Part shown: positions 1 through 61,897 of the stretch, one piece after another
Position numbering within the stretch: position 1 is the first letter of the stretch
Layout of the letters: each line of letters starts with the position of its first letter
From: a phage
Length of the DNA: 64,000 nucleotides
Assembly: GCA_026066175.1 (NCBI GenBank)
Contig: GCA_026066175.1_4721.1
Strand: one strand, 5' to 3'
Position numbers and translations under genes: made by a program
The notes under the pieces: generated by a model
Told to the model about the DNA's origin: nothing
Databases searched by the model: none
What the model saw: the letters and a program-made list of their open reading frames with translations, nothing else

Positions 1-559
1 AGAACTGATAGAAACTGTGGCATGCAGGAAGCGCCATATCGTCTAAATTGCCTACGTTCCATGCGCTAACGATAATCCGTCGAGAATCAGGATCTTCTTT
101 GAGTTGACGCATCACGTTTGCAATTTGGTCATGGTGTTTAACATACAAGAGATGTTTAACCATACCGTCGTTAACAATACCGCAATACTCATAACCGCGT
201 TGCATCAAAGTACGGGTACGTTCGGTGTCGTGCGGAACAACAACTTTGTAGTCGATCCATTCACGCCATTGTCTACCGTAAATCGGCCCTAGGTTCCCTT
301 CTTTATCAGCCCACTCATTCCAAATACGTACGCCGTTATCCTGAAGATACGCGACGTTCGTATCACCGTTAAGGAACCAGAGTAGTTCGTGAACAACGCT
401 CTTAAGGTGAATCTTCTTGGTGGTGACCAACGGAAACCCTTTCTTTAAGTCAAAATGCATTTGACGTCCGAATACCGAACGTGTGCCGGTACCGGTACGA
501 TCAGCTTTATCGCGACCGCTATCCATGATGTCTTGTAAGAGATCTAAGTACTGTTTCAT
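1..559 (-). CDS. thyA: Thymidylate synthase, N-terminal part; gene runs off the window start
   Basis: Minus-strand translation from ATG at 559..557 reads [31 protein letters not shown]...FPLVTTKK...[12 protein letters not shown]...[14 protein letters not shown]...[11 protein letters not shown], which matches conserved ThyA blocks. About 45 extra residues lie before the DPDSRR block relative to E. coli ThyA as recalled. No stop inside the window. Confidence 0.85.
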
Positions 560-768
560 TTCAATCCTCTAAACGCTTTAGGTAGTTCCTGAAGTTTGTC
601 ACGATATTTAGAATCGCTTAACGTGTAACAACAACCACGTAACACGTTGTATGCGTAATCAGCTTGTAAACCACGAACCATCGGATCCGACGATAGATTC
701 AATGGTACATCATCAAAAATCCACACTTCAACGTTCTTCTTGTGTTCCTTCGTTAACATCGTTTTCAC
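556..768 (-). CDS. Hypothetical protein (70 aa)
   Basis: ORF on the gene strand; its TGA overlaps the thyA ATG in an ATGA arrangement. Confidence 0.4.
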
Positions 769-828
769 CTCACGATAAAGTAAATAGGATTTGTCGAGAC
801 GCCCTATTCTTTTATCGTTGGTTTTCCA

Positions 829-1692
829 TTAGTAATAATATCTGATACGTTCGGGTTTTGCTAAAACACTCTGTTCGAATGGCCTTACATGTACGCAAAC
901 ATCGACAGAATAATAGATACTACCATCGCCACACCATCGCATTACCACACATCCCTTTCTTGTACGAATATGGTAAAACGTCCACTGTGTTTGCCAGTTA
1001 TCGTCTGTGGATTCTTCCGTTCTTTCTTCCGCATCAAGAATCTTTTCACCGACAATATCGCTTAAATCACCATCGATATCGCTGAGATATACCGTCTCGC
1101 AACACTCACGGCTGTGGTACATTTCTACCACGTTATCGTCTTCGCGATGAAAAAGGATAGCTTTACAGTATTCCAGCTGTTCCTCGGTTATTTCTGACGC
1201 GTTAAGTAATTCGTCGTTATCAGTCACCATCCAGATATTTTTGATTACATGCCCGTCGAGCTCCTCCATTGTAAATACCTCGATATTCGGACGAACGGGT
1301 TCAGGTTGAACAATCGGAATACGAACACAACCAATTAAGGCCATCCGTCCTTTCTTTGGTCTAACCGCAAGGTAAGGTGATTTTCTTGGGTGGTTATGCA
1401 GACGTATTTCTAATTCGTCGAATTTAATCCCGTATATACCTAAGAAACGATCGAACAACCGATGAAACTCATCTGTTGCTTCTTCCAACGTTATGGCGTC
1501 TACCGTGAGTTTATGTCCCCTGAACACTCTGGTTAAATCGATAACGTCCAGTGTCTTGAAATATATTTCCGTAAGGGGATGATTTGTATTTTCCAGGTAC
1601 GTAATGGTTCTTTGAACCCAGATTTTAGGCGCAGCGCCTTTAAAACGTTTCAGGTATTTAAAGCGATAACGGGTATGATCTGATGTTATCAT
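829..1692 (-). CDS. Hypothetical protein
   Basis: ORF track gives 829..1779, but the N-terminal extension is encoded by the hairpin at 1765..1789. Start trimmed to ATG 1692..1690, preceded by AGAGAGGAGG. Confidence 0.45.
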   Translation of the reverse strand: MITSDHTRYRFKYLKRFKGAAPKIWVQRTITYLENTNHPLTEIYFKTLDVIDLTRVFRGHKLTVDAITLEEATDEFHRLFDRFLGIYGIKFDELEIRLHNHPRKSPYLAVRPKKGRMALIGCVRIPIVQPEPVRPNIEVFTMEELDGHVIKNIWMVTDNDELLNASEITEEQLEYCKAILFHREDDNVVEMYHSRECCETVYLSDIDGDLSDIVGEKILDAEERTEESTDDNWQTQWTFYHIRTRKGCVVMRWCGDGSIYYSVDVCVHVRPFEQSVLAKPERIRYYY

Positions 1693-1764
1693 TTTAGCCT
1701 CCTCTCTTAGCTTCAGAGAATTCTCAAAATCCGTTAGTTTTGATAGACCGAGTAAGACGGCATA

Positions 1765-1789
1765 AAAGCCTCCCTCCATGGGAGGCTTT
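1765..1789. terminator. GC-rich intergenic hairpin (aaagcctccc / gggaggcttt), putative intrinsic terminator
   Basis: Perfect inverted repeat with a 5-nt loop, followed by T-rich sequence, just downstream of the stop of the 1801..2349 gene. Confidence 0.45.
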
Positions 1790-1800
1790 ATTACGATAAT

Positions 1801-2425: not shown

Positions 2426-2435
2426 GCAGGGATTA

Positions 2436-5110: not shown

Positions 5111-5446
5111 TTATTCTGGTTTATCTGCTGACAGACCGAGACCCGCCAGTATTACGTAGTCGTACCACGCTTTTACTTTTGCTTTCGCGTCATCTAAACT
5201 GAATTCGGTGACGTAAGGAAATTCGCCGTTGACTTGGAAAGGCAGCTCGCAGGTGTAGCCGGTATGATCCTTCCAACCTTTCCATTCGATAATCAGAAGA
5301 CCAAAAACAGTCTCAGCGGTAACATGATTGTAGCGGCACGCTTCGTTTGGCGGATATTCTTCCGACCAGGTAATCTCCTGCTGTGCTAAAAGCTGTTGTA
5401 CGACCGCTAACGGTTGTTCCTCATTAAGTTCGATACTATCGATCAT
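5111..5446 (-). CDS. Hypothetical protein (111 aa)
   Basis: ORF on the gene strand; 4-nt overlap with the upstream gene. Confidence 0.4.
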   Translation of the reverse strand: MIDSIELNEEQPLAVVQQLLAQQEITWSEEYPPNEACRYNHVTAETVFGLLIIEWKGWKDHTGYTCELPFQVNGEFPYVTEFSLDDAKAKVKAWYDYVILAGLGLSADKPE

Positions 5447-6039
5447 CGGATACCCTCTTTCTCTTTATCGTAATCACTGCAAACATTAACGAATGCCGTA
5501 TTGCTGGATAGCACACTTACCATCTTACGGATTGCATCCAGCGGTTCAAGTTTAGGATCAATTAACGCACCGGTCAACACGCTGATTGCTCGTGCGATCT
5601 CAGCCAAATTAACATTTGGGTCTTTGTCGTCAATAATGAGCAAACTCTTTGCTGACTTCCGGCGACGCTTGACGATCAACAAGAACGTAATCAGGTTCTC
5701 ACGCCACGCATCAGAATCCAGATTACGTATCAGGGTTAATGCCCGACGTTCTTCTGCCCAGGATGGTTTCTCACGGATCACCGGCATGTAAGCTAATTGT
5801 TCGGCAAGTCCTTTCAGACTGACGCGGTTGGTCCCACCAGGATGTTCGCTGATCCTCAACATCTCGGTTAATATACGCACATATGCGGTTGTTGTTGATA
5901 CGCCACGTAGCGGCAAGAACAAATTATGTCCTGGAACACCATCATGGCTCAACGGTGCGATATAAGTCATGAACCAGCGAATATCATCGTCGGTTTGTTC
6001 TCCAACGACGAATGTAAACGCCTCACGTAAAACACTCAC
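5443..6039 (-). CDS. Hypothetical protein (198 aa)
   Basis: ORF on the gene strand. Confidence 0.4.
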   Translation of the reverse strand: MSVLREAFTFVVGEQTDDDIRWFMTYIAPLSHDGVPGHNLFLPLRGVSTTTAYVRILTEMLRISEHPGGTNRVSLKGLAEQLAYMPVIREKPSWAEERRALTLIRNLDSDAWRENLITFLLIVKRRRKSAKSLLIIDDKDPNVNLAEIARAISVLTGALIDPKLEPLDAIRKMVSVLSSNTAFVNVCSDYDKEKEGIR

Positions 6040-6325
6040 GATGAAATCTCCTTAACGCTTCTTGTATACGTAATCTCTTCGGTAGGTACAGACGTTTGTA
6101 CAAATCGATTAACAGATAACGCAACACTGACGCGACCACCAGGTACTCACCCTCGGATTCGGAATAGCGGATCATGTTAATCGGGTAATTCAAATAAGAA
6201 TAAGAAAAGAGATCATCGTTAGTAAGGCGATGATCCTCAAGATACTGACGAAATATGTTTGCTAAGGCATCGTACTCCATTCCGTAGTAACGCAACGACA
6301 CCTGTCTTGCAGACAGTCGTTTCAT
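6023..6325 (-). CDS. Hypothetical protein (100 aa)
   Basis: ORF on the gene strand; start may be internal. Confidence 0.35.
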   Translation of the reverse strand: MKRLSARQVSLRYYGMEYDALANIFRQYLEDHRLTNDDLFSYSYLNYPINMIRYSESEGEYLVVASVLRYLLIDLYKRLYLPKRLRIQEALRRFHRECFT

Positions 6326-7164
6326 GCTGGGTTACCTTTTAGTTTTTCGCGTATCGCTTCAACAACGCTTGAAGGATCAGTAATAATGGCCGCGATAAGA
6401 TAATCGATAGGTATGTCAAGAATGATTTTCTTCAATTGAAAGGTCGTATCTTTACGACGTACACCGTAAAACACACCATCCTTAAACACGACTTCGTATG
6501 AAATTGGGAGCTGGCTAATGATGGTATTGGCGTAATCCCCTAACCACATCGACCCCGCCATCAAGTGCGCACAAATTGCATGACTGATACGCACATCCTT
6601 GTTCTTCTGGCTGACATCTTTGATTTTAGCCATGGCGACCAGAAGTTCACCAACCTTATTCAGCATGTCGTCGTATACCCCGAAGAACTTAATCAACTGC
6701 CGCGTCCCTAACGACATATACGTCTCTCGAGGTAACACACAACACACCTGTGGTAACGTACCGACACCATAGACGCAACTGTGGGGTGATAACGGAAGCA
6801 GGTCAGCAACCGCATTTTTGATGTTGTTGTAAGCCGTGATATCGTTGAAGGGTGAAAGGCCTTTTGTCATTGGCTTATCGATCGCTACATCGAACTCGGC
6901 AAACGTCCATGCGGCTTTACGAAGTTGCCCCTTTTGGTAGGGCGGGGCCAATACCGCAACAACACGAAGACGGTACTCATGGGTATCACGCAATGTGAGT
7001 TGAATGCCTTCATCATCCCCTTTACGTACAAGCAGATAACGACTTGCGCATCCATCACACACCACCGTGGGTTCATGTTGACCGTACGCGGCGAGGATCG
7101 GTTTACTAAGATCTTTATCGCAGTGTTTACAATGATGATCTTGTTCCTGATAACAGATTTTCAC
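6322..7164 (-). CDS. Hypothetical protein with N-terminal Cys-rich (zinc-ribbon-like) segment
   Basis: HHCKHC ... CDGC spacing near the N-terminus. Confidence 0.4.
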   Translation of the reverse strand: MKICYQEQDHHCKHCDKDLSKPILAAYGQHEPTVVCDGCASRYLLVRKGDDEGIQLTLRDTHEYRLRVVAVLAPPYQKGQLRKAAWTFAEFDVAIDKPMTKGLSPFNDITAYNNIKNAVADLLPLSPHSCVYGVGTLPQVCCVLPRETYMSLGTRQLIKFFGVYDDMLNKVGELLVAMAKIKDVSQKNKDVRISHAICAHLMAGSMWLGDYANTIISQLPISYEVVFKDGVFYGVRRKDTTFQLKKIILDIPIDYLIAAIITDPSSVVEAIREKLKGNPA

Positions 7165-8135: not shown

Positions 8136-8139
8136 TTTG

Positions 8140-9821: not shown

Positions 9822-10379
9822 TTATTCCATCCAGACTTCTTCGTCGTAATGGTTCTCTATTGCGTTGCGCCAGAAGCGAACGGTATCCAAACTGATCGGC
9901 GTATAGAAATGTTGATCAACACCGACGTTGAGTCCGTTTGCTTTCGCTAACATACAACGATGGATATGTCCAAACAGATTGAAATACCCTGGGTTTCTTT
10001 CACTGGGTTTATGGCATAACCAATAAGACTCGTCGTTATTGATCGGCAATACCAACGGATGTTCATAAACCGCAGCAAATCCCATATCAAGGAGCTTGTC
10101 GCGGAAAGCATCAAAACTCAACCCGCTCGCCTTGCAGGCGTCCTCGTCCCAATTCCCGAGTACTAACTGAACCTGGATATCAGAACGAATGGCTTCAATG
10201 AACTCGAACTTGCCCCAATCGCCCAGATGCCACAACACGCTGTTCTTAGGGAGATTGTTGATGGCTTTCAGCATGTGTTGGTTCATGTCAGCCACGCTTG
10301 CAAACGGACGACGTGAATACACCCGGGTGCGTTCGCTGTCAAAATGCGTATCTGAAGTAAAGAAGATAGATGGGATCAT
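9822..10379 (-). CDS. Calcineurin-like metallophosphoesterase
   Basis: Motifs SDTHFD, HLGDWG, VLGNWDED and GHIH in the expected order. Confidence 0.55.
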   Translation of the reverse strand: MIPSIFFTSDTHFDSERTRVYSRRPFASVADMNQHMLKAINNLPKNSVLWHLGDWGKFEFIEAIRSDIQVQLVLGNWDEDACKASGLSFDAFRDKLLDMGFAAVYEHPLVLPINNDESYWLCHKPSERNPGYFNLFGHIHRCMLAKANGLNVGVDQHFYTPISLDTVRFWRNAIENHYDEEVWME

Positions 10380-10858
10380 CGATCTAATTGCTCCAGAAAT
10401 GCACGCCCTGATTTACTTGCACGCAAATGTTGTTCTGCGGAAGTCAGCAGCACGTCGGTTGGCGTATAGGCTACACTGCCTTTCCACTCCGTCTTCAGCT
10501 TACCCTCTTCGATGCTGAACTGAATCAGTTGTTGGGTGCCAAAATTAAGCGTGTTGGTTGCTGCGCTGAATACACCACCCATCATGCTGTAACCAAAGAC
10601 TTTCGCATCTTCTGCATAGAAGTCGTTGTCGATCAATTTGTTCTGTAGTTCCAGCTGATCGGACGGCAGCAGTCCACCATCAAAGACACTTAGAATACCG
10701 GCTAAGCGATAAATACTCACCTTTCCTGAAACACCCACCACGTAATTGCCGTATGGTGTTTCCTCAAGCTTCGCGACGACGGTGCGATCATCGGAGGTTT
10801 TCATTGAAACCTCAATGCCATCATCGATTTCCGTTAATGTTAAATCAACAATACTCAT
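10376..10858 (-). CDS. Hypothetical protein (160 aa)
   Basis: ORF on the gene strand; 4-nt overlap with the downstream gene. Confidence 0.4.
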   Translation of the reverse strand: MSIVDLTLTEIDDGIEVSMKTSDDRTVVAKLEETPYGNYVVGVSGKVSIYRLAGILSVFDGGLLPSDQLELQNKLIDNDFYAEDAKVFGYSMMGGVFSAATNTLNFGTQQLIQFSIEEGKLKTEWKGSVAYTPTDVLLTSAEQHLRASKSGRAFLEQLDR

Positions 10859-15472: not shown

Positions 15473-15811
15473 TTAGAACCAGAGTTCTTTCATGAAGTAG
15501 GCTTCCATATCGTAAATAAGCCACTCATCTGGGATTTCTAAAGGATCGTCTTCGGTTAAGGTGAGCATGTGCAGGGCGAACGCACGCTTAATATCTTCCA
15601 ACAGCTTATCATCACCGTAACCTTCGGGTAGTTTACGGTCAACCAGCTGGGTTTGTTTATAGACATCGCGGAACGCTTCAGGATTATGTTTATCCATCGG
15701 GAATTGTTCAGCAGCCTGAACCATCGAAAGCGTCCAGCTTACAACATTGTAACGCTCACCGTTAATTTCACTGAACTTATCATCGATTAAACAGATTTGT
15801 TGTATATTCAT
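15473..15811 (-). CDS. Hypothetical protein (112 aa)
   Basis: ORF on the gene strand. Confidence 0.4.
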   Translation of the reverse strand: MNIQQICLIDDKFSEINGERYNVVSWTLSMVQAAEQFPMDKHNPEAFRDVYKQTQLVDRKLPEGYGDDKLLEDIKRAFALHMLTLTEDDPLEIPDEWLIYDMEAYFMKELWF

Positions 15812-16701
15812 ACATTTTCTCCATTCTTATCTTGGCCGCAATCACACTCTTCGGTGTCTTTCTTACTTAAACGTAAGACACCGAGTGCGGCATGCTTGAG
15901 TTCTTGCAAAGCGCTTTTCAGCTGACCTTCTTCATCGAAATCAAAATACTTCTCGTTGTAGCTTAATGCTGGAATCATATTTACGAGAGGTTCGATGGCA
16001 GGCATCAGCATCTCAATCACAACCTTAGGATCAACGAAACGTTCGAACCCTTCAGGAAGTTTACTGGTGATAACTTTGTCGTTCTTGATGAAGAATTTAT
16101 TCTTGAACAGATCGTCAAGGATAGCATTCTCTTCATCGGTACGTTCAGCGTAAGGCCGATCGATCATCTGTACGAAAACACCGTTAAGGGCTTCAGGCAT
16201 TGCGGGGTTCTCACGAAGGTTAAACCCTGCTGGGATTTCGATATCGATCTTCGCCCAGTCGATAACCTGATGGTCTCGCGTATAGATGACGTCAACCTCC
16301 CACGCCAAGCCATCGGTACCTTCTACGGTATAACGTGTTTTAGCTTGACCTTCTGGTGCCATACGCTCGATAGCATCGAACATCTCGACCGGAATTTCCA
16401 CTTCGCTTTCCATGGCATCCCCTGGACCGCGATAAACCTTCGTGGTCATGAAGTACTTCGGTTCTTCGTTGTCGATCTGGATTGCTCGAGCACGTACCTG
16501 GCCTTTAACACCACCCACCGACGTGTTATCGTACAACCACTGGTGTTGCACCATGTGTTCAATTTTCGTGGCGTTCTGACGTAGGATATCTACACCGTCT
16601 TCAGCCAGTTTACCAAAGAAGACCAGCTCACGTTCCTGCTGTGTCTCTCCGCTCAACATCATTAAATTGGCGATTTGTCTCACGCCTTTTACTTTCGACA
16701 T
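15808..16701 (-). CDS. Hypothetical protein (297 aa)
   Basis: ORF on the gene strand; 4-nt overlap with the downstream gene. Confidence 0.45.
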   Translation of the reverse strand: MSKVKGVRQIANLMMLSGETQQERELVFFGKLAEDGVDILRQNATKIEHMVQHQWLYDNTSVGGVKGQVRARAIQIDNEEPKYFMTTKVYRGPGDAMESEVEIPVEMFDAIERMAPEGQAKTRYTVEGTDGLAWEVDVIYTRDHQVIDWAKIDIEIPAGFNLRENPAMPEALNGVFVQMIDRPYAERTDEENAILDDLFKNKFFIKNDKVITSKLPEGFERFVDPKVVIEMLMPAIEPLVNMIPALSYNEKYFDFDEEGQLKSALQELKHAALGVLRLSKKDTEECDCGQDKNGENV

Positions 16702-16749: not shown

Positions 16750-19011
16750 TTACAATTCGAAATCTTCATCGATAACGCGTTGGGTTAGCACCTTGTCGCT
16801 GAAGAACTCCACCTTACGTTGATGGTATTTCCGATGTGCTTCAATCGACGTACACACCAGATACCAGAACGTGGGTGTCATACCCTCGAACTTCCCTTTC
16901 AGCTGACGTAGTCGACCTAACACCTGAATGTTACCAGTTCTCGACCCCATCGCTAACGTCATGAACGTCATCACCAAGTCAGGAAGATCGATTCCTGTAC
17001 CAGCCGATTTTACCGTTGTCACACTGATATCATTATCCAGTAACACCATGAAATCTTCTTCAGCGGTATAAGGACCTATCTCCAACTCAGGGATACGTTC
17101 ACTTAAGTAATGCGATAACGACTTGCACATATCAACGGTTGCACAATACACCAACATCTTCATGCCTTCCTGATATTGGTTCATGAAACCTTTGATAATA
17201 ACCGTATAGATAAAGTTGAAATAGGCGAGTTTGAGTTGCTTATTCTTCATGATAGACTGTTCGAATACCGTGTGAGAATAAGAACCTCCAAAGCCTTTGT
17301 ATCGGACTTTATCCGTACTGCGTAGTCGATACGTCACCGCATTTACCGCGATGTATTTCTTGTATTCACATTTCGCATAACGTGCTTCTTTCGGATACAT
17401 CAAATACAGCATCCGCTCGATGAACGGATCGTCAGACACCGCCGTTGCCGACAGATAAATGATTTCCGGAATATTCGCGTAACACTTCACTTTGAACAAG
17501 AAATGCAGAGCTTCGTGACATTCATCGTGGATTAACAATCCAATGCCTGTTTTCTCCCAGAACTCGACTGGATGGAAAACATAAGGTGCGACACAGTTGT
17601 TCTTTTCATAATCGGTTATATAACGCTGAAACATGTTCAGTGAGAATAACGCAATTTTGAAATCCAACTCACCTTGTTCTACCAACGTCTGAAATTCCAA
17701 CATGCTGTAACGAGGAATGTCGGGATGCGGTGGGTCAGACTGGGCTGTACCACGTATCTCGATAACATCACCTGGTTCCATACCGAAGAAACTTAGCAGT
17801 GAGCTACGCCATCCAGGCATGTACCTCGGTGACAGAATGATGCCCGTCCGTACACCACGTCGGAAGGTGATCTCCTGCGACATTGCGGTGTTGTGCGTGA
17901 CGATATGGTCTTTAATAACATAAAGGCTTTCGTCGTTGTCCACCGTGATGCAACGTGCCTTCGCTTTCACCGTCGGCACGATGCCGCCAATCGCTAAACC
18001 AGGAAGCGTGTTAACGGGAAGATCATCTGGAATCTCAATGCCGTCAGGAATAAGCTTAAGCAAATCGGAATGGTAAATTAATGTCTCCATCGTGTAACTA
18101 TTGATGGGGCATTTATACGCGATTCCCCCTAACCGATAAGCCAACTCCCAGACCTCGGTCATTATCTGCGAATCGGTGGTTCTGACCGCAAGGTGAGCCC
18201 ACCCTTCTTCAACACGCAGCACGCAACGATCTTTGATGAGTTCTCTGAAACGATCAAGACCCACGAGTTCTTTCGGTTCGTAAAGTCGGATTCTTACCGG
18301 ACGAGATCGTGACGATCTGTCATTAAGACGTTCCATGATTTCACTCGTGCTGAGCACCTTGTCAGGATCCGTGCATTGCCAGAGATGATCACCACACGCT
18401 TCAACCATTCGTCCATCTTCAAAGAAGACAGCGTAAAGCTGAATATCGTCATGATCAAAGATAGCAGTTACGTTCGTCGGTAAACCATCCGCGCCGATGA
18501 CCTCATCACCCACCTGGAGCTCACCAATCGGCTTCCAACCGCTTGGAACCTTAACGGGTGTATGGAGAGCCAATGCTTTCCCAGACCCCGTGCCTGCGGT
18601 GTTTAGGCTCATTCTGAAAGGGGTATCCTTACCCCCATCCATGTACTCCAACCATTCTTGCTGATCTTCACGCCACGGAAACTTCCAGTTCTTCACAAAC
18701 TCCACTTCCTTACCTGGAACCGGATCGTGGTAAACGATTTCCAACCACTCCTTTCGAATTCCTCGAGAAAAGATAAAATCCAAAAACGACTTCAGCTGTT
18801 CACGAAGTAAGTAGACCTCGCTATAATCGCTTCTTGCTGCGGCGTAGGTGTTGATGGTATCGGTGACCATTCTCCGTGTACGAGGGTCGCGTCGTTTCCG
18901 TAGATGCAAACAACGGTCTCGAAGGTAATGGCCAATCAAATGGGCAAATCGAAGTCCGTATCCGCTCAGCTTCATGCCATGCGAGAAGACGTCGATACGA
19001 GCTAACTTCAT
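16750..19011 (-). CDS. DExH-box helicase with an intein-like insertion in the Walker A motif
   Basis: GTGSGK is followed by a 229-residue insert ending VTHN, then T; removing the insert gives GTGSGKT. Downstream DExH box LLIHDECHEAL. Confidence 0.55.
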   Translation of the reverse strand: MKLARIDVFSHGMKLSGYGLRFAHLIGHYLRDRCLHLRKRRDPRTRRMVTDTINTYAAARSDYSEVYLLREQLKSFLDFIFSRGIRKEWLEIVYHDPVPGKEVEFVKNWKFPWREDQQEWLEYMDGGKDTPFRMSLNTAGTGSGKALALHTPVKVPSGWKPIGELQVGDEVIGADGLPTNVTAIFDHDDIQLYAVFFEDGRMVEACGDHLWQCTDPDKVLSTSEIMERLNDRSSRSRPVRIRLYEPKELVGLDRFRELIKDRCVLRVEEGWAHLAVRTTDSQIMTEVWELAYRLGGIAYKCPINSYTMETLIYHSDLLKLIPDGIEIPDDLPVNTLPGLAIGGIVPTVKAKARCITVDNDESLYVIKDHIVTHNTAMSQEITFRRGVRTGIILSPRYMPGWRSSLLSFFGMEPGDVIEIRGTAQSDPPHPDIPRYSMLEFQTLVEQGELDFKIALFSLNMFQRYITDYEKNNCVAPYVFHPVEFWEKTGIGLLIHDECHEALHFLFKVKCYANIPEIIYLSATAVSDDPFIERMLYLMYPKEARYAKCEYKKYIAVNAVTYRLRSTDKVRYKGFGGSYSHTVFEQSIMKNKQLKLAYFNFIYTVIIKGFMNQYQEGMKMLVYCATVDMCKSLSHYLSERIPELEIGPYTAEEDFMVLLDNDISVTTVKSAGTGIDLPDLVMTFMTLAMGSRTGNIQVLGRLRQLKGKFEGMTPTFWYLVCTSIEAHRKYHQRKVEFFSDKVLTQRVIDEDFEL
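17890..18576 (-). other. Putative intein (229 codons, Ala1 ... His-Asn, +1 Thr)
   Basis: Hint-like blocks GELQVGDEVIGADG near the N-terminus and CITVDNDESLYVIKDHIVTHN at the C-terminus; sits exactly inside the P-loop. Confidence 0.5.
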
Positions 19012-21608: not shown

Positions 21609-21720
21609 AATCTCATTTCCTCTTCTCTGTTAGGATAAATGACATGCTGGATAACGTTGCCTTTGCATATATTGCTTTATTTCCGTCAGAAATAACGGAA
21701 AATAAAAACAACGGCATAAA

Positions 21721-37066: not shown

Positions 37067-37304
37067 TTAGCATTGGTTATTGATTGCTTCTATTTCATCG
37101 ATATACGGTTCTACGTCATCGCCCTCCACGAATTCGTTGAACCAACAGTCAATCGTTGAGATAACCGGTGACTGATGTTCACATTTCTTAGATACCTTAA
37201 ACGGAACGTTGTTATCCATCATACCGAGTTCGGGTCGGAATCGCCCGAAATGTTTCGCAGTCCAAATGTCTGGGACGATATGGTTGTTCATAGCGTCTCC
37301 GTCG
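37067..37304 (-). CDS. RNA polymerase beta-prime N-terminal subunit, exon 3
   Basis: Frame is open upstream of the track ATG back to the proposed 3' splice site; the exon begins c-gac-gga-gac (xDGD) and continues AMNNHIVP...LGMMDNN, which aligns with beta-prime DGDQMAVHVP...LMMSTNN. Confidence 0.6.
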
Positions 37305-37683: not shown

Positions 37684-37702
37684 AAATCTGCATTATCTAA
37701 AC
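37684..37702 (-). CDS. RNA polymerase beta-prime, 19-nt mini-exon (exon 2)
   Basis: gtttagataatgcagattt supplies (C)LDNADF when joined to the flanking exons. Confidence 0.55.
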
Positions 37703-38071
37703 CTTCGATATGGTTCGCTACGCCATACCCGCACATACGTGCAGCTTACGTCTTTCACGTAAGAAGAGACTATATCTTTCACCCTCAGCTTTACCTGTTA
37801 GGGGCTCCCATTTCGGCGGTCGTTTGACCGGTGGTTTCCCACGCCGCTTGGCCCTAACGCCCGTAAGCGATAGTCGTTGAGCACATCTCCGTTCTGGAGA
37901 CTTCGCTGCGGATTCCCCAATCCTTACTGCTTTTACCGTACCTGAATGATTAGTTCAGCCCCATGCTCTGTTCCCAGGCATGGTTGGTGAGCAAGGCTCT
38001 AAGTAGGTTCCCGCTATTAGAGAGTTCCTCGTGATAGCATTACTGTGTCACTGGGCCTAATGACCCTTTCA
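37703..38071 (-). ncRNA. Group I intron 1 (about 369 nt)
   Basis: Minus-strand core elements AAUAGCGGGAAC (P), GGAAUCCGCAGCG (Q), GCUCAACGACUAUCG (R) and GAAAGAUAUAGUC (S). Proposed P1 pairs exon AUGAUCU with GGGUCAU across a UGAAA loop; intron ends in G. Confidence 0.55.
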
Positions 38072-45556: not shown

Positions 45557-45955
45557 TTATTCAAAAATGTATTCGTATCCGAACGTTGTCGCTGACCAAA
45601 CTCGGATAGATGATAATGTTCCGCCACGATAAAACGTTTTTGTAAATTCCATATCCTGGACAACACGATAATAAACACGTGCGATGATACGTACAACGAG
45701 ATTTCGTGATAACGATCTCTCTTCGCAGTATTCGTCGATAAAGTCATCGTCGATATCCGATAAGACAACATCTGCGATTTCTTGCAGGAGATTCCTCATC
45801 AGCATCTGCTTTCCTTCGATACCCCATCCCGACAAACAGTAATCGTCTTCTGCCTGACTGTAGATGTCATAGACCGCCTGTTCAAGCAGTTGCTCAAGAT
45901 AGTGATCATCGCGTTTTATAACATGGCGACGGCGCTCAGAGGCGTATTTTTCCAT
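45557..45955 (-). CDS. Hypothetical protein (132 aa)
   Basis: ORF on the gene strand. Confidence 0.35.
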   Translation of the reverse strand: MEKYASERRRHVIKRDDHYLEQLLEQAVYDIYSQAEDDYCLSGWGIEGKQMLMRNLLQEIADVVLSDIDDDFIDEYCEERSLSRNLVVRIIARVYYRVVQDMEFTKTFYRGGTLSSIRVWSATTFGYEYIFE

Positions 45956-46398
45956 CCTGTGTTTCTCTTGTTAGGCGTATGTATTAACGACGCCACCGTC
46001 TTTTCTGGATCATCCCATAATGCGCGACGAAAACTGGACACCACCATAACGGTAGGATAGATCTGTACAACCTCCCAACCGTAACGATGTGCATTCGTCG
46101 TGCGCCCAACATTGAACAAACACAATTGATTCAAGAAACAGAGCTGCATCTTCGTAAACAATAGCGTGTCTTCACGTTTCACGTAACCGAGGATATAGGC
46201 GTTCTCGAACGCTTCACGTGCTAAGACAGGACGGTTAAGATAACGTAGCGACAACACCAACAACGCGGTGATACGCAACGGATCTTCGGGTCCTTTTAAA
46301 TCATTCAGCTCATTCTGCAACCAATCCGGAATCGCCACCGTTAGGCGATAGGTGTCTGTTCCACGATCAACCACATTTAATGTTGAAAAAGGCAACAT
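45916..46398 (-). CDS. Hypothetical protein
   Basis: ORF on the gene strand; start uncertain. Confidence 0.35.
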   Translation of the reverse strand: MLPFSTLNVVDRGTDTYRLTVAIPDWLQNELNDLKGPEDPLRITALLVLSLRYLNRPVLAREAFENAYILGYVKREDTLLFTKMQLCFLNQLCLFNVGRTTNAHRYGWEVVQIYPTVMVVSSFRRALWDDPEKTVASLIHTPNKRNTGWKNTPLSAVAML

Positions 46399-46990
46399 AC
46401 CCGTGAATTCCTTCTAACTCGAGGTCGTTCTCGTCGGTTTTCGGTAAAAGTCCGTTAGCTGTCAGCATCCTTGTCATCGCGCCATCGAAGCACGGGAAGA
46501 TAAGGTTAATAGTTTCATTAATCGCATCAACGTAGCTATACACCGCTTCGAAGTAATCGCCGTCATGATCGATACTCACCAGATCCTGGCATAGGTCTTC
46601 AGCAATCGTTTCATATACCGGCGGATACCACGAATGAAACGGTCGCTGCATACGTAACGACCAATACTCATACGTCGTATACTGAAGCACGTCATAGGCT
46701 GATACGTTAATGCGGTCAAAGAAAGCATACGTGTCCATGTGTTGGTACAACATCGCCAACACGGTTTCCAAACACACAGCTATCCGCACGCCATCATCTT
46801 TCCCGTTAAGGAAATTCGGTTTCTGCCGGTAACGCACGAATGCCGATGGCCTTGATTGTACTATTCCACCACCAACCATAATGTCATACTCGTATCTAAC
46901 GTGAAATTGAAATGCCACCAATCTTCCACGCGTGGAATCCAGGTGCGGAGGATCTGATGAACCTCGCTTCGCATCACGGACAACCGACAA
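46367..46990 (-). CDS. Hypothetical protein
   Basis: Overlaps neighbours in other frames; start uncertain. Confidence 0.35.
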   Translation of the reverse strand: MSVVRDAKRGSSDPPHLDSTRGRLVAFQFHVRYEYDIMVGGGIVQSRPSAFVRYRQKPNFLNGKDDGVRIAVCLETVLAMLYQHMDTYAFFDRINVSAYDVLQYTTYEYWSLRMQRPFHSWYPPVYETIAEDLCQDLVSIDHDGDYFEAVYSYVDAINETINLIFPCFDGAMTRMLTANGLLPKTDENDLELEGIHGYVAFFNIKCG

Positions 46991-47418
46991 CGGAAATCAA
47001 ACTTCTCATCACGACCATAGTCTTCATGCAGGAAAACCTCATCCAAAACAAACTCAAGTTGTGTATCGACATCACGACCCGAGATATTTCGTTTGTACAG
47101 ATACAGTTCGATCGTGTCATAAAGCAACGTATGGATATCGTAATTGCCATTCGGTGAGAAATAAGGTAAGCGTTCATCGAACATCAAAAACAGATATTCA
47201 CTGTAGTTTAAGAACGGGATGATGTACCGACGTCCTGTCTGTGGTGCGCGAATATGTATCGAAACCTGACCTGGACGCGGAATCGCCGACGGTTTAGCAT
47301 CGTCTCTCTGAAATTGCTCTAAAGATCGCAACAAAGGTGGCCGCATTGTAACTCTCCAACGCCCAATTGTAAGGCCCTTCCAACATGTGTTCCCATACGT
47401 GAATAAACTCACTACCAA
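46861..47418 (-). CDS. Hypothetical protein
   Basis: N-terminal part looks like low-quality extension; start uncertain. Confidence 0.3.
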   Translation of the reverse strand: MVVSLFTYGNTCWKGLTIGRWRVTMRPPLLRSLEQFQRDDAKPSAIPRPGQVSIHIRAPQTGRRYIIPFLNYSEYLFLMFDERLPYFSPNGNYDIHTLLYDTIELYLYKRNISGRDVDTQLEFVLDEVFLHEDYGRDEKFDFRCRLSVMRSEVHQILRTWIPRVEDWWHFNFTLDTSMTLWLVVE

Positions 47419-47923
47419 AAACCGGTTCTAACGTCATCGTAAGATGCGTAAGTTCAGAAGCTGCAGCGTGATACGCGTCCACGTGTCTTTCCATCGAAGG
47501 TTCGTCTTCGTTGAAAATACGCTCGGTATCACCAGCACGTTCAATAAGTTCGGTAATGAGATCGATCCAAGTTTCGTGGCATGTCAGTGTTTCCTGTTCT
47601 CGACTTTGTATGCCGATGTCTGCGTGTACGCTGGACTCGAACCGGTCGAAAAGGACCCGAAGAACGTGCACCTTGTCGATGTATTTCACCGTTATCCAGG
47701 AAAGCGGTTGCCATCGACTCAACATCCATCCGGTGCTCGGGAACCCCAAACTCATATAGTACGGGTTGCACGGGGCCAAGGACGGAACGGCGTTGTTTGT
47801 AGCGTTCCTTAACGGCGAGGCCTTGTTTGACATAAATGGGTTCATTGGCGAGTTCTGCGGCTTTTCGTTTTGCGTGGGCCAATCGAAGTTCTTCCAATTG
47901 TCCAAGCCATTCAAATTGTTCAT
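47294..47923 (-). CDS. Hypothetical protein
   Basis: Overlaps 47541..48518 by about 380 nt in another frame; true start is probably internal. Confidence 0.3.
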   Translation of the reverse strand: MNNLNGLDNWKNFDWPTQNEKPQNSPMNPFMSNKASPLRNATNNAVPSLAPCNPYYMSLGFPSTGWMLSRWQPLSWITVKYIDKVHVLRVLFDRFESSVHADIGIQSREQETLTCHETWIDLITELIERAGDTERIFNEDEPSMERHVDAYHAAASELTHLTMTLEPVFGSEFIHVWEHMLEGPYNWALESYNAATFVAIFRAISERRC

Positions 47924-48518
47924 CTGTTAGCTCCTGGGGACGTTCAACAACCACGCCCGATGGGCAGACATTGATCGTAATGTTAATTGATGGCATCGCC
48001 ATCACTCGAGGATTACTATTACGTACACGGATAACATGTTCGGTTGCTGATTTACGATCAACGCAATATTCTGTCTCCTGAAACTCAAATGCTTTTAACG
48101 GTGCTGGTTTTGTTTGACGTTTTGGAACACGGCCAAGATCAACAATATAGGCATAATCGCACACACGTTCTATTCCGTAAATACGGTTATCCGACCAATT
48201 CTTACCAAACAGCTTGTTGTGATGATAAGACAAATATTCGGTTACCATACCCTGGACAACATCGAAGTCTTCTCGAAATTCAGGTTGGTACCAAATCGGG
48301 CCGAGAATATCTGCGAACGATTCATGACGATAGCGGCAATCATGCCGTGTCCAGGTCATCCTCTGATTAAGATCGAAATCAACCAGCAACTCAGTTAATT
48401 GCAGTTTTGCCTTCGGAGAAAGCTGGCGTTGATGATGCAAACTCAGGCAATCGATAAGCGGTAACGAAACCCACGACGCTAACGTATACAAATCGATCCT
48501 GGCTAATCTCTTGGTCAT
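47541..48518 (-). CDS. Hypothetical protein
   Basis: Long ORF; C-terminal Arg-rich tail may be spurious read-through. Confidence 0.4.
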   Translation of the reverse strand: MTKRLARIDLYTLASWVSLPLIDCLSLHHQRQLSPKAKLQLTELLVDFDLNQRMTWTRHDCRYRHESFADILGPIWYQPEFREDFDVVQGMVTEYLSYHHNKLFGKNWSDNRIYGIERVCDYAYIVDLGRVPKRQTKPAPLKAFEFQETEYCVDRKSATEHVIRVRNSNPRVMAMPSINITINVCPSGVVVERPQELTDEQFEWLGQLEELRLAHAKRKAAELANEPIYVKQGLAVKERYKQRRSVLGPVQPVLYEFGVPEHRMDVESMATAFLDNGEIHRQGARSSGPFRPVRVQRTRRHRHTKSRTGNTDMPRNLDRSHYRTY

Positions 48519-51089: not shown

Positions 51090-51590
51090 TTATCTGTGGT
51101 TCCCTCCCTCGGCGAGTTCGAGGGAGGTCTCAACAAAGCCAGCAGCAACACCACTCGCCGATATCTGTAAGGTATCGTTGAAGATAAGATCGTCAGGTAA
51201 ACAATCGAAGTAAATACCATATTGCGTGTTTGTCGTATTAATGATCAATGACGGCGTCGGTCGCGTTTTCTTAATGTCGGTGATATACAAACGTAAGAAC
51301 GTTTCACCGTCTTCGCTATCCGTAAAACGATACGCGTTACCAGAAAACTCGACACGTGGCGTAACGATAAACTGCACGCGATCGTCAGCCGGATGGATAT
51401 TTAGCCACCGTGCGATATCATCTGTGTTCACGTTGTGCATACTCAGCACGGTATACGCAAACAACGTAGCATGATGTTTGGAATAATGCAGTACATAAGC
51501 CGCATCTTTCTTTTTGTGAACCCCTTCAACGTATTCTATTGTCGTGTAGCCTGATTTATAAAGCTTTACTTGCGGTTTCTCATTCATCAT
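51090..51590 (-). CDS. Hypothetical protein
   Basis: Track start 51671 is TTG; first ATG at 51590 forms an ATGA overlap with the stop of 51587..51886. Confidence 0.4.
   Translation of the reverse strand: MMNEKPQVKLYKSGYTTIEYVEGVHKKKDAAYVLHYSKHHATLFAYTVLSMHNVNTDDIARWLNIHPADDRVQFIVTPRVEFSGNAYRFTDSEDGETFLRLYITDIKKTRPTPSLIINTTNTQYGIYFDCLPDDLIFNDTLQISASGVAAGFVETSLELAEGGNHR
51102..51127. terminator. GC-rich hairpin (ccctccctc / cgagggagg)
   Basis: Downstream of the plus-strand gene 50247..51089; overlaps the 3' end of the minus-strand ORF. Confidence 0.4.
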
Positions 51591-51886
51591 AACAACCCTT
51601 CCCGTTTCATCGCAGAACGCATACTTGCGTAAAGCGCATTCTTCATTGCACCTGGACGTAACGGATAACAAATCTCATATCGACGTCCTTGTTTTACAGC
51701 GATCTTCCTTCCATTCAAAAACAACGTTCCATTATCCAGCAAGAGCTCACCTTGCAATACCATGAGCCCTGCCTTAACATGCCGTCCTTCTTCTTTGGTT
51801 AACACTTTGTAGCCGTGTTTATCCAATAACCACAACTCGTAAATACCGTGCGCAGCCTTCGGTGTTACTTTCTTTTTCGTCGTCAT
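51587..51886 (-). CDS. Hypothetical protein (99 aa)
   Basis: ORF on the gene strand. Confidence 0.4.
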   Translation of the reverse strand: MTTKKKVTPKAAHGIYELWLLDKHGYKVLTKEEGRHVKAGLMVLQGELLLDNGTLFLNGRKIAVKQGRRYEICYPLRPGAMKNALYASMRSAMKREGLL

Positions 51887-54463: not shown

Positions 54464-54814
54464 TCAACACCCTATCTCTGCATAAACCTTCAATGCTTCG
54501 AATGCATCTCCCTTCTTTGTCATCGTCTTGTACAGACGTGATTGAGCAATGATTTTTACCCATTGCTTAGGATCATGAAAATTCACGTTTTCAAAATGAG
54601 GTGTGTGATCATCATTGAATTTGATGTACCCTAAAAGCAATCCGGTATGAGAACCTCGACGGAGTTCGATATGGGGTTTGAAGAAGATACGATTGTCTGG
54701 TGGATACCAGCTTACCGTGTAGTAATGGTTTCCCGAAACAACGATTTCATGAACCTGTTTTGTTTCGTCATCGATAACCGCGTTCACGCAAGGAATCATT
54801 AATTTTTGAAGCAT
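54464..54814 (-). CDS. Hypothetical protein (116 aa)
   Basis: ORF on the gene strand. Confidence 0.4.
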   Translation of the reverse strand: MLQKLMIPCVNAVIDDETKQVHEIVVSGNHYYTVSWYPPDNRIFFKPHIELRRGSHTGLLLGYIKFNDDHTPHFENVNFHDPKQWVKIIAQSRLYKTMTKKGDAFEALKVYAEIGC

Positions 54815-55398
54815 GGGACATAAACCTCCATCAACATCGCATAAAGCGCACCAAGCCCGTGTAGGACTCGGTTAGGGGCAAAGGTAGGTGTATAGCAGAC
54901 TTGTTCAGTGGGCGCTTGCTGACGCAGATCGAGAGGATCCCCGTTGATAAGCATTTGTAGAAGATCGGTGTCGTCCTGTAAGGTATCTTCATCGATATAC
55001 GCATCAACACAGAGCAGTCGATGTAACTGTTCGGGTTTAATTGAGATGCCGACAACCATGCAGTTGTTGTAGGTCGCGTTGTCCAGAAAGAAGTGAATAA
55101 CCCCTGCTTGCGGATCGCCGCTGTAATGCAGCCATTGAGTAAAACCCGCCGACATCATCCACAACGGGTTATGTTGCAATGCGCCGACAACACGGGTTTC
55201 GAATTCCAAACCGAACTTCTGGAAGATCGCGCCCATCTGGAAACGATCTTCATCCAAACGGTAACGGAAGATACAGGCATCAGAGCCTGTTGAGTTATCA
55301 TACACCGAAAGATACCCACGATGGATTTCCACGGTAACGTTGTTATCATTAAGCGTAGCGCTTGCGACGCCGTTAGCAAAGGTTGGTACAAAGCTCAT
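54799..55398 (-). CDS. Hypothetical protein (199 aa)
   Basis: ORF on the gene strand. Confidence 0.4.
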   Translation of the reverse strand: MSFVPTFANGVASATLNDNNVTVEIHRGYLSVYDNSTGSDACIFRYRLDEDRFQMGAIFQKFGLEFETRVVGALQHNPLWMMSAGFTQWLHYSGDPQAGVIHFFLDNATYNNCMVVGISIKPEQLHRLLCVDAYIDEDTLQDDTDLLQMLINGDPLDLRQQAPTEQVCYTPTFAPNRVLHGLGALYAMLMEVYVPCFKN

Positions 55399-55973
55399 CT
55401 TGTAATCCTTAATTTACCTGAATGAATGATTGTTGTTGGGTCGACGACGCGACCGTATTTCGCGTTACGTAGTACACGATGCCCAAAGAAGTCAGCGGTT
55501 TCTAACACAACCGTATAACAACCCAGTTGATGTTGGTGCCCCCAAAACCGCTCAATGGGAATCCAGCATGGTGTCATGCCTTTATGTCGCCAATCGGTAA
55601 CGCAACCAAATTCAGCAAACTGCTCAGTAAACCACTCGTCGATATCGGTATCCGTAAAGAGAAAGACATGATCTCTAACCAGATAAGCGAATCCAGGATA
55701 AAAAAGCTGCGGGTCGTCAGCGTCACGAAGATAGACACGAAGTTTATCTAACGTGCCCTCGATAACGATCGTATCGGGTAATCCTGGCGGTGTGAATCGA
55801 AGTTGGAAATTATCCTCGTTTGCTGAAGCGTTAACCAAATACCCCAATTGAAGAGGTCGATGCAATTCGAAGAGATTGAACGTTAGTGCATATTCGATAT
55901 ACTCTAATCCTATATTCATGTTTGACCTATGTGGTATGGATGACATTACGTTGCCTTCCGCGGATATAATCAT
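55395..55973 (-). CDS. Hypothetical protein (192 aa)
   Basis: ORF on the gene strand; 4-nt overlap with the downstream gene. Confidence 0.4.
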   Translation of the reverse strand: MIISAEGNVMSSIPHRSNMNIGLEYIEYALTFNLFELHRPLQLGYLVNASANEDNFQLRFTPPGLPDTIVIEGTLDKLRVYLRDADDPQLFYPGFAYLVRDHVFLFTDTDIDEWFTEQFAEFGCVTDWRHKGMTPCWIPIERFWGHQHQLGCYTVVLETADFFGHRVLRNAKYGRVVDPTTIIHSGKLRITR

Positions 55974-60107: not shown

Positions 60108-60119
60108 ATAAACTCCTCC

Positions 60120-60146
60120 GATGGAGGGTGCCGAGCACCCTCCATC
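60120..60146. terminator. Strong hairpin (gatggagggtgc / gcaccctccatc)
   Basis: Twelve-bp stem between 60158..61897 and the terminase gene. Confidence 0.5.
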
Positions 60147-60157
60147 GTTGTATTACC

Positions 60158-61897
60158 TTATGCGACTTTACTAATAACGACGGCAGTGATACCGAGATGG
60201 AGGTCAACGCCGTTCTGTACTTTAATCCAGCGGATATACAGGTTAGCGTTATCCTGTCCCGTACCACCTGGGACGTTATTGTTCTTATTCCATTGTGAGA
60301 TTTCGAAACGTTTCTGCACGTTAGGGCCAACCATGATTTCAAAGTGGGTTGGTTCTGGTGCTTTCGATTCCGTCTTCTCAAGATAAAGCGGATGGGTTGA
60401 GTAGTAAAGCTGATTCAACCATTCACCCAGGTCTGAGTGTTTGTTCGTCAAGTCAACGTACGCGTTACCGGCAACGTCGTAAGAGAACAACGCTTTCGTA
60501 TTACGGCCGTATACATCCGTTGTTGTTGGGGTGGTCTGCGAACTGAAGGTAACTGTCCAGTAATCACCGGATGTTGCCGAACCGGCTTGCAGCAACGTCA
60601 TGCGAATCGTCTGTGTATGACGTACACGTTTGTAAACGGTAGGGTCGACTTCATCCAGCCAGATGTTGTACGCAAACTCTTGAGGTTGTCCGTATTTCTT
60701 CGGACTGAACTCAGGACTGTTCAACGCTAATTGGACTTTGTCGGTGACGTTGTAATACCGTTCACGGTCAACGTTATACAGCCAGAACACCAGCTCGTAA
60801 CCCACAGCGTCAGATACCCATTGCGGATAACAGAACAGCTTAACGCTATACGCGCCCTTCGCTTCTTTCGAAACGACGGTGTATGGAACACTGATGTGTT
60901 TCACTGCACCTGGTAATGCGTAGGAGGTATCTTCATCATCATCCAGGTAGTAGTGCAGCGCCAGTGGGTGTTTGCTGTTAATGACCTGAGACGTGAAGAC
61001 GTTAAGACCATCCAACACAACCTTGTTCCCGGTAACAGGCCAGTACTTGATAGAACCGTCGCTGTACGTGACTTCTGCCTGAAGGTCGACGGAGTCCAAG
61101 TTGACGTTGATTGGTAGCTCAAGGAGTTTGGAATCGCTGCTGCTAAGCCAGGTCGATTTCAGTCGTACTCCGTCTTCCAGGATGTACTTAATACCTTGGT
61201 CTGGTGTACGGACATAATCAGTAATACGAACGATCATGCGTTTCATCGACAACGGTTGTGGACCATCACCGTAACCGACCACCATCACTTGTTCGAAGTC
61301 TTCTACAGGTTTAATGCAGTAGCCTTCACGGGGTGCCCAGATGGCTTTGTTCGTTCCGTCTTTATAAGCGATAAGCTGACAGGGAATAAAATCGCTGATC
61401 TTATTACCGCTATTGTCATACATCGCACTGATGATTTCGCCGTTAGCGCTGATATCAGAACCACGGAAGACCGCAATACGTCGAATATCCGAACCGTGTA
61501 GATGGAAACGACGGTCAATGTTCATCGTTGCTGGAATGGTGTTCGTATTAATCAATACCCGCCAGGTATCGTACGACCAGGTTGGATCGATCCCTTCAAA
61601 GGTCGTTGTTTCATCACCTTGACCATCGAAGGGTGCTGACAATTGACCGATGAGCTTAAGGGTACTCAGTTTCGTTCTGTCATCAACAGCGATAACCCGG
61701 TACACCGCGTTGGTGTCCCAGTCTTCAACTTTATCATCCACGTTGGGAACATAAAGCTTCCAGTCTTCTTCAACACCATTGTAGATCTCTTTATACGCAT
61801 ATGTGGTATAGCGTCTGTCGAGATCCTGAATAGCGAGTTTATCCGGATGCTGTTGTGCGTAAAGCACCGGATTGGTAATCTCTCTTCCCATTATCAC
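60158..61897 (-). CDS. Hypothetical protein (579 aa), possibly virion-associated
   Basis: Long ORF adjacent to the terminase gene; ATGA overlap with the upstream gene. Confidence 0.4.
   Translation of the reverse strand: MIMGREITNPVLYAQQHPDKLAIQDLDRRYTTYAYKEIYNGVEEDWKLYVPNVDDKVEDWDTNAVYRVIAVDDRTKLSTLKLIGQLSAPFDGQGDETTTFEGIDPTWSYDTWRVLINTNTIPATMNIDRRFHLHGSDIRRIAVFRGSDISANGEIISAMYDNSGNKISDFIPCQLIAYKDGTNKAIWAPREGYCIKPVEDFEQVMVVGYGDGPQPLSMKRMIVRITDYVRTPDQGIKYILEDGVRLKSTWLSSSDSKLLELPINVNLDSVDLQAEVTYSDGSIKYWPVTGNKVVLDGLNVFTSQVINSKHPLALHYYLDDDEDTSYALPGAVKHISVPYTVVSKEAKGAYSVKLFCYPQWVSDAVGYELVFWLYNVDRERYYNVTDKVQLALNSPEFSPKKYGQPQEFAYNIWLDEVDPTVYKRVRHTQTIRMTLLQAGSATSGDYWTVTFSSQTTPTTTDVYGRNTKALFSYDVAGNAYVDLTNKHSDLGEWLNQLYYSTHPLYLEKTESKAPEPTHFEIMVGPNVQKRFEISQWNKNNNVPGGTGQDNANLYIRWIKVQNGVDLHLGITAVVISKVA

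Follow-up and report, generated by a model that had tools for sequence, protein, structure and literature searches.

ATGA overlaps between co-directional genes of a Goslar-like jumbo phage: an ordinary gene junction, likely to couple translation

The closest described counterparts of the junctions reported here are the E. coli gene pairs that overlap by four nucleotides in the motif ATGA (stop-to-start distance -4), such as menD-menH and hyfH-hyfI (Huber et al. 2019, 2023; PMC6728339, PMC10666635), for which coupling has been shown by experiment. In reporter tests carried out in E. coli and Haloferax, 13 of 14 natural overlapping pairs were strictly coupled (PMC6728339); reinitiation is supported at distances from -8 to about +10 nt, and coupling collapses within about 20 nt of spacing (PMC10666635). 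The distance -4 is by far the most frequent one in E. coli and across 1,695 species, and 24% of the E. coli unidirectional pairs lie within -8..+6 nt. Phages offer cases of the same kind, the coat-lysis pair of MS2/fr and genes V-VII of IKe (PMC12548453), where termination on a polycistronic mRNA activates the next initiation by host ribosomes. However, in the RNA-phage cases the overlaps are long (-38 to -50 nt) and defined RNA structures are involved, whereas the junctions described below are minimal, 4 nt, with no special structure predicted.

The DNA analysed here—a stretch of 64,000 nt, hereafter the window—is 85-88% identical to phage Goslar (NC_048170.1) over its full length, i.e. its DNA differs by 12-15%, and its source genome is that of a Goslar-like nucleus-forming jumbo phage of E. 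coli. It differs from Goslar by an intein carried by the helicase (gp164 homologue, 16750..19011), by the lack of the HNH gene gp186 and by an extra ORF at 829..1779; its RNA polymerase beta' gene is interrupted twice. A preliminary description of this DNA had listed nine 4-nt overlaps, four of them with ATG and TGA sharing TG. All nine gene pairs are co-directional on the minus strand, and at eight of the nine sites TGA closes the upstream ORF while ATG opens the next one within a shared ATGA. The sharing of TG is found at 556, 19008 and 51587 but not at 61894, where 61894..61897 reads GTGA; each of the five other predicted overlaps (5443..5446, 6322..6325, 10376..10379, 15808..15811 and 55395..55398) does read ATGA. 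Our own gene model of the window contains no -4 junction that had been overlooked. One more ATGA, at the stop codon of the gp167 homologue (21613..21616), is due to chance, its frame closing after 5 codons.

The eight junctions, all read on the minus strand, are as follows. ATGA 556..559 joins the stop of a 67-aa hypothetical gene (556..759, homologue of Goslar gp142) to the start of thymidylate synthase (..559, gp141 homologue), with the Shine-Dalgarno (SD) sequence GAGGA placed 6 nt upstream (dG -5.8); 5 synonymous changes relative to Goslar occur within the first 8 codons after this thyA start. At 5443..5446, the gp149 homologue (5443..6039) ends where the gp148 homologue (5111..5446) begins, behind AGAGGG 6 nt upstream (dG -6.3), and the latter gene has no other in-frame start within 120 nt. 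The junction 6322..6325, between the stop of the gp151 homologue (6322..7164) and the start of the gp150 homologue (6023..6325), has the weakest SD among the eight, AAAGG (dG -3.9). A metallophosphoesterase (9822..10379, gp157 homologue) starts at 10376..10379 on the stop of the gp158 homologue (10376..10858), with GGAG 11 nt upstream (dG -5.6). Similarly the stop of the gp163 homologue (15808..16701) overlaps at 15808..15811 the start of the gp162 homologue (15473..15811), GGAG being located 7 nt upstream (dG -6.4). At 19008..19011 the gene of an RNA polymerase beta-like subunit of the phiKZ-gp74 type (19008..21014, gp165 homologue) ends on the start of the DNA helicase; its SD, GGAGGA, is strong (dG about -9.4) but lies 13 nt upstream. 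ATGA 51587..51590, between the gp231 homologue (51587..51886) and the gp232 homologue (51090..51590), with GGGAAGGG as SD (dG -7.0), is included in ATGATG 51585..51590, so that 51585..51587 constitutes a second in-frame ATG whose use would give a TGATG (-1) junction. Finally, at 55395..55398 the stop of the gp225 homologue (55395..55919) meets the start of the gp226 homologue (54799..55398), TAAGGA being 7 nt upstream (dG -5.9).

The ninth site departs from this pattern. The minus strand at 61889..61897 reads GTGATAATG, not ATGA, the gp220 homologue ending on the TGA at 61894..61896. For the virion structural gene that follows (gp221 homologue, 60158..), the most likely start is the ATG 61889..61891 rather than the GTG 61895..61897, a choice that would turn the overlap into a spacer of +2 nt. 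The GTG is formally a possible start, being the first start codon after the in-frame stop, but the ATG has the better-placed SD (AAAGGTGA, 6 nt upstream). ATG opens 236 of the 247 Goslar genes, and Goslar gp221 is annotated in RefSeq from the matching ATG, with 2 nt between gp220 and gp221. The whole 61889..61897 region is identical in all four genomes compared, so that conservation cannot choose between GTG and ATG here.

This case raises the question of whether the overlaps at large could come from longest-ORF calls, the true starts lying downstream and the overlaps vanishing once they are corrected. At the ninth site such an explanation is true or likely true. Besides, the start codons of gp240 and gp238, annotated in Goslar with longer overlaps, lack a conserved counterpart in the window, so that start calls in this genome are not uniformly reliable. 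For the eight ATGA sites, on the other hand, we consider it very improbable. The overlapping ATG is the first in-frame start past the upstream in-frame stop in seven of the eight junctions, and it has the best SD among the candidate starts; the candidates that come next, 24 nt or more further downstream, have a poor SD, and no other SD-bearing start is found within 24-120 nt. The sole exception, the second ATG at 51587, would still overlap. Synonymous substitutions relative to Goslar occur in the downstream genes from codon 2 onward, codons 2-8 included, and every one of these ATGs is kept in three or four genomes. The 16 genes of the eight junctions are all under purifying selection: together with the two of the ninth site, they make 18 genes with orthologues at 73-99% amino-acid identity and a dN/dS of 0.01-0.34 versus Goslar, for a dS of 0.3 to >1. 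The use of the ATG of each ATGA as start codon is strongly supported by these sequence comparisons. Corrected starts, which the preliminary description had named as what would refute it, thus leave the overlaps standing at the eight ATGA sites and likely remove the one at 61894.

The preliminary description also called these overlaps frequent. Tabulating the stop-to-start distances with our own gene model, we found that -4 is the largest single class in the window, with 8 of 63 co-directional pairs (12.7%), while the 20 other bins between -14 and +6 hold just 5 pairs (binomial P = 2.7e-8 for the -4 excess). Throughout the Goslar genome 22 of 207 pairs (10.6%) are at -4, all of them ATGA (P = 9e-16), and 50 of 207 (24%) lie within -8..+6 nt. 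The overlaps are therefore far above a flat expectation, but at the normal prokaryotic level. The Goslar distribution is the same as that of E. coli: it peaks at -4, -1 comes second, a shoulder is present around +10 to +15, and the share of pairs within -8..+6 is equal. Local enrichment in the window is ruled out: it accounts for 27% of the genome and for 8 of the 22 -4 junctions of Goslar (binomial P = 0.22; Fisher test by pairs, P = 0.62). The overlapping upstream genes stop with TGA in 8 of 8 cases, versus 11 of 65 for the other genes of the window (Fisher P = 5.6e-6). A reassignment of TGA is unsupported: read with the standard code the ORFs have normal lengths, the stop codons of Goslar are TAA in 71% (175/247), TGA in 24% and TAG in 5% of genes, and the window contains no tRNA gene.

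Among relatives, the eight junctions correspond in Goslar to gp141/142, gp148/149, gp150/151, gp157/158, gp162/163, gp164/165, gp231/232 and gp225/226, annotated as 4-nt overlaps with an identical ATGA. Goslar and UViG_3300011560 keep the motif intact at 8 of 8 sites and UViG_3300045988 at 2 of 2, against a difference of 10.6% in the flanking sequence. The junctions 51587..51590 and 55395..55398 are kept in four genomes, the window included, and the remaining six junctions in three; at 15808..15811 the base preceding the ATG is T in the window and A in the other two genomes. At a larger distance the picture changes. The order RNA polymerase-helicase is common to phiKZ, Ea35-70, Eowyn and PCH45, with junctions of -17, +14, +100 and +62 respectively, and the phosphoesterase of the Erwinia phages Yoloswag and SNUABM_5 has another upstream neighbour, at -8 and +11. 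Such variation of spacing among chimalliviruses, and of neighbours in Erwinia phages, rules out a deep conservation: beyond the genus, i.e. outside the Goslar lineage, the overlaps are evolutionarily labile. IMG/VR provided no intermediate relatives, the two extra genomes being both at the level of Goslar.

Were these overlaps to suggest translational coupling, as first proposed? The prerequisites visible in the sequence are present at the eight junctions: co-directional real genes, an exact ATGA, a SD inside the upstream gene, and no strong terminator-like hairpin less than about 100 nt away from a junction. Around the junctions, sigma-70-like promoters match no more often than expected from shuffled sequence, in a scan confined to this promoter class. 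The distance falls everywhere inside the reinitiation range, being -4 at the eight ATGA sites and, at the ninth, +2 (-4 if GTG is used). Motif, ribosomes (the host is E. coli) and position of the SD are those of the E. coli pairs, whose coupling was demonstrated by experiment. By analogy, translational coupling through termination-reinitiation is the likely outcome. A single polycistronic mRNA would carry both genes of each overlapping pair; when it terminates on the upstream UGA, a host ribosome would already be positioned on the AUG that follows; this ribosome, or its 30S subunit, may be retained with the help of the SD embedded in the final 6-13 nt of the upstream coding sequence and may reinitiate, tying the output of the downstream protein to the translation of the upstream one.

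Other features bring no sign of coupling and have to be weighed against this reading. The SD upstream of overlapped starts is far above background (median -6.4 versus -1.8 kcal/mol, P = 1e-11), but the -4 class does not differ in SD strength from leading genes and genes without overlap (MWU P = 0.75), a genome-wide comparison that is partly circular in that RBS signals are already used by the pipeline that annotated the projected Goslar starts. The weakened SD that SD-independent reinitiation would let one expect in overlapped genes is thus not seen. Neither is a stronger masking structure around overlapped starts: the predicted opening energy of -15..+5 has a median of 6.4 kcal/mol in the -4 class against 5.5-6.7 in non-overlapping genes (P = 0.86). 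Independent de novo initiation is possible, since neither value differs. The overlaps might then be real but mere by-products of compaction, born from the loss of a stop codon or the shift of a start codon with ATGA as a stable end state, each downstream gene initiating through its own SD without meaningful coupling. Besides the equal SD strength and accessibility, the generic prokaryotic frequency of the overlaps and the other spacings or partners met in the distant phages fit such a neutral origin. We nevertheless hold it for rather unlikely. In a genome that prefers TAA, pure compaction should favour TAATG (-1) at least equally, whereas the ratio of -4 to -1 junctions is 8 to 1 in the window and 22 to 7 in Goslar; when a ribosome stops on UGA it physically covers the AUG, so that some interaction is hard to avoid; and nearly all the natural overlapping pairs submitted to reporter tests were strictly coupled.

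Coupling might also take another route, the upstream ribosome melting a hairpin that masks the downstream RBS and a new ribosome initiating in place of the same one. A 2025 review treats both models as open (PMC12548453) and, according to PMC12908238, the mRNAs of nucleus-forming phages are exported and may fold before meeting ribosomes, so that masking structures could matter more in these phages. Yet the opening energies give the -4 class no special structure to melt, and at this distance the terminating ribosome blocks the site needed by a new 30S subunit, as argued in PMC12548453; unfolding thus appears an improbable explanation for the junctions considered here. On the whole, the eight ATGA sites are best read as genuine overlaps of real co-directional genes in long same-strand arrays, where termination-reinitiation probably operates, in a standard arrangement that is not special to this phage.

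The ATGA overlaps are indeed ordinary, since they are the commonest gene junction of bacteria and their phages, present at the usual frequency, and as such they were already known. Subunits of heteromeric complexes are over-represented among the E. coli pairs; by contrast the phage partners are mostly lineage-specific with no assigned function. Pfam and PHROGs searches gave almost no matches for them, and a function could be assigned to 4 of the 16 junction proteins: thymidylate synthase, phosphoesterase, RNA polymerase subunit and helicase. As most partners have no known function, no stoichiometric requirement can be argued. A bolder proposal would be that, the phage nucleus splitting transcription from translation, termination-reinitiation at ATGA could be the main setter of relative protein output in the same-strand arrays of chimalliviruses, with junctions tuned to the E. 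coli ribosome. If true, this tuning would explain a distance spectrum identical to that of the host; we see it as a speculation with little chance of being right.

The phage thus follows the junction grammar of its host, and the import of the finding beyond annotation quality is small. The gain in annotation consists of eight start codons strongly supported by sequence and of the likely correction of the start of the gp221 homologue to ATG 61891. If the coupling is true, one should expect a knock-down or a nonsense mutation in an upstream gene, e.g. that of the RNA polymerase subunit (gp165 homologue), to have a polar effect on the downstream partner, in this case the helicase; this possible polarity may be relevant to the reading of CRISPRi-ART or antisense experiments in Goslar-like phages.

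The only relative of the window retrieved by megablast of its whole length against the phage collection is Escherichia phage vB_EcoM_Goslar (NC_048170.1 / MK327938.1); the two are collinear over Goslar positions 132,094-195,662 at 85-88% identity. Goslar is a chimallivirus, a jumbo phage of E. coli that forms a nucleus, and its genome measures 237 kb. The homologous Goslar region codes for thymidylate synthase, several phiKZ-type RNA polymerase subunits, the nuclear shell protein, PhuZ tubulin, DNA polymerase and the large terminase; no tRNA gene lies within the window. For our gene model, the Goslar proteins were placed on the window by tblastn and every frame was followed until it closed; the model has 74 genes, of which 67 are minus-strand.

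The preliminary description listed nine 4-nt overlaps between neighbouring genes, and eight of these stand. ATGA is present on the minus strand at 556, 5443, 6322, 10376, 15808, 19008, 51587 and 55395, its TGA closing the upstream ORF and its ATG opening the next one at every site. In seven cases this ATG is the sole start from the upstream in-frame stop to at least 24 nt downstream, and in the same seven its Shine-Dalgarno pairing is energetically the best (-3.9 to -9.3 kcal/mol for the ATGA starts, against -4.0 to +1.2 for later candidates). The eighth, 51587, reads ATGATG, and both ATGs yield a canonical overlap (ATGA or TGATG). At all eight junctions a Shine-Dalgarno-like motif lies 6-13 nt upstream, within the preceding gene.

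Selection and conservation agree with these starts. Purifying selection relative to Goslar acts on the 16 genes of the eight junctions and on both genes of the ninth site (dN/dS 0.01-0.34, synonymous divergence 0.3 to >1). The substitutions that directly follow each ATG are synonymous for the downstream gene, as in thyA with five in its first eight codons. The ATGA is identical at 8/8 sites in Goslar and in the IMG/VR relative UViG_3300011560, and at 2/2 sites in a further one, UViG_3300045988; as 10.6% of the 30-nt flanks differ (51/480), the lack of any change in 32 ATGA positions has P = 0.03 in a single comparison. Start context, selection and conservation thus make corrected starts that would erase the overlaps very unlikely at these eight sites, which belong squarely to the -4 nt ATGA sequence class. 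A chance ATGA at 21613..21616 (-), where the gp167 homologue stops, offers a natural negative control: the frame of its ATG runs for 5 codons before closing, and the true next gene begins 4 nt on.

The ninth site, 61894..61897, does not share the ATG and TGA it was credited with: it reads GTGA, inside AAAGGTGAGTGATAATG, and the overlap itself is probably wrong too. The GTG is the first start past an in-frame stop, but a mere 0-3 nt separate it from the Shine-Dalgarno-like AAAGGTGA; for the ATG at 61891 this distance is 6 nt, and that ATG is also where the RefSeq annotation of Goslar begins the gene, leaving a 2-nt spacer. Besides, 236 of the 247 Goslar starts are ATG. The region is invariant across all four genomes at hand, so that conservation is uninformative on GTG versus ATG.

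By analogy with characterized pairs, coupling by termination-reinitiation at the ATGA junctions is quite probable. The translating ribosomes are those of E. coli, and one stopping at the UGA already covers the AUG. Reporter assays showed strict coupling of this kind for 13 of 14 natural overlapping pairs from E. coli and Haloferax, the Shine-Dalgarno contribution being gene-specific (PMC6728339), and coupling drops steeply with spacing to be nearly lost at about 20 nt (PMC10666635). That the overlaps are real yet uncoupled seems unlikely to us, even if the Shine-Dalgarno strength fits it equally. Goslar-wide, the median for the -4 class (-6.4 kcal/mol) compares with -6.0 to -6.2 for non-overlapping genes (P = 0.75), and in Goslar this class is far stronger than the random coding background (-1.8; P = 1e-11). 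Such strength suits assisted reinitiation and independent initiation alike, and therefore does not discriminate between them. A variant of coupling acting through RNA unfolding finds no support, the predicted opening energy of the -15..+5 region being alike between classes (P = 0.86). No strong terminator-like hairpin was found near any junction.

The junction at 19008 joins an RNA polymerase beta-like subunit (gp165 homologue) to a helicase (gp164 homologue, 16750..19011, -) of 753 aa, whereas that of Goslar has 524 aa. An in-frame insert of 227 aa (17893..18573) sits within the P-loop (GTGSGK|T), with ALALHTPV at its N-end and VTHN|T at its C-end; Pfam does not recognize it, and solved structures of DnaB inteins (6rix, 6riy, 6bs8), which also start with Ala, match it at E about 1e-13. 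The insert is an Ala-1 intein, of which UViG_3300011560 has a diverged form and Goslar none.

The phiKZ-type RNA polymerase beta' gene (37067..39305, -) also departs from Goslar and appears to be interrupted twice, giving three exons. Exon 1 (39305..38065) is followed by a 363-nt insert (38064..37702), absent from Goslar, which scores weakly as a group I intron (27.9 bits) and has splice sites inferred from the reading frame only; then come an 18-nt mini-exon (37701..37684) that codes for LDNADF, a group I intron of 379 nt (37683..37305; 49.1 bits, gathering score 50) and the last exon (37304..37067), which is the "hypothetical" gp185 of Goslar. The 379-nt intron is homologous to the annotated Goslar intron but lacks its HNH homing endonuclease gene gp186 (Goslar L002 4235..5245), missing at 37292..37310. 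Once joined, the exons give 498 codons (495-519 aa in uninterrupted homologues) and restore the catalytic NADFDGD motif.

Two other regions differ. At 45916..48518 (-), five consecutive genes (gp242-gp237 homologues) have long overlaps in the Goslar annotation (-19 to -53), but the gp240 start (TAATG) is GTA in the window and that of gp238 (ATGATG) is ACA CTG, so that the starts of those overlaps are doubtful; the gp238 frame, +1 relative to gp237, is open for 211 codons, and may reflect a frameshift product or mis-called starts. At 829..1779 (-), the window has an ORF of at most 316 aa with DUF7448 / phrog_2650, likely starting at 1692 where the Shine-Dalgarno is strong; Goslar lacks it and carries just an intergenic terminator in that place.

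The overlaps themselves are specific to this lineage. In phiKZ, Ea35-70, Eowyn and PCH45 too, an RNA polymerase subunit of the phiKZ gp74 type is followed by a helicase of the gp75 type, but the annotated junctions there are -17, +14, +100 and +62 nt respectively, against -4 in the window; in the Erwinia phages Yoloswag and pEa_SNUABM_5 another small gene precedes the phosphoesterase (gp157 homologue), at -8 and +11 respectively. Short overlaps have been associated with heteromeric complexes; 12 of the 16 partner proteins have no recognizable function.

The overlaps had also been called frequent, which is true against chance only. Among the 63 co-directional adjacent pairs of the window, eight lie at -4 (P = 2.7e-8 against a flat distribution over -14..+6), one at -1 and single pairs at other short distances. 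In this genome, which prefers TAA, TGA closes 8/8 overlapped upstream genes and 11/65 others (Fisher P = 5.6e-6). The -1 pair is the sole TAATG, at 33175 (-) between gp179 and gp178, where reinitiation could occur; it could likewise at the spacers of +1 (gp175/gp174, 28577) and +4 (gp153/gp152, 8136..8139; gp167/gp166, 21609..21612). In a tabulation of the whole Goslar annotation (247 CDS, 207 co-directional pairs), -4 accounts for 22 pairs (10.6%), every one of them ATGA, and -1 for seven; overlaps number 51 altogether, 50 pairs (24%) lie within -8..+6, and there is a shoulder at +9..+16. The window is not locally enriched, holding 8 of the 22 Goslar -4 junctions in 27% of the genome (P = 0.22). 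This is the usual level: -4 leads all other distances by a wide margin in E. coli and across 1,695 species, -1 comes second, and E. coli has 24% of its unidirectional pairs within -8..+6 and a small peak near +10 (PMC10666635). In most groups of prokaryotes, overlaps concern about 15% of the co-directional pairs (PMC6728339). Nothing separates these junctions from thousands already described, and they are not novel; the agreement of the Goslar figures with the literature indicates that the phage mirrors the junction spectrum of its host.
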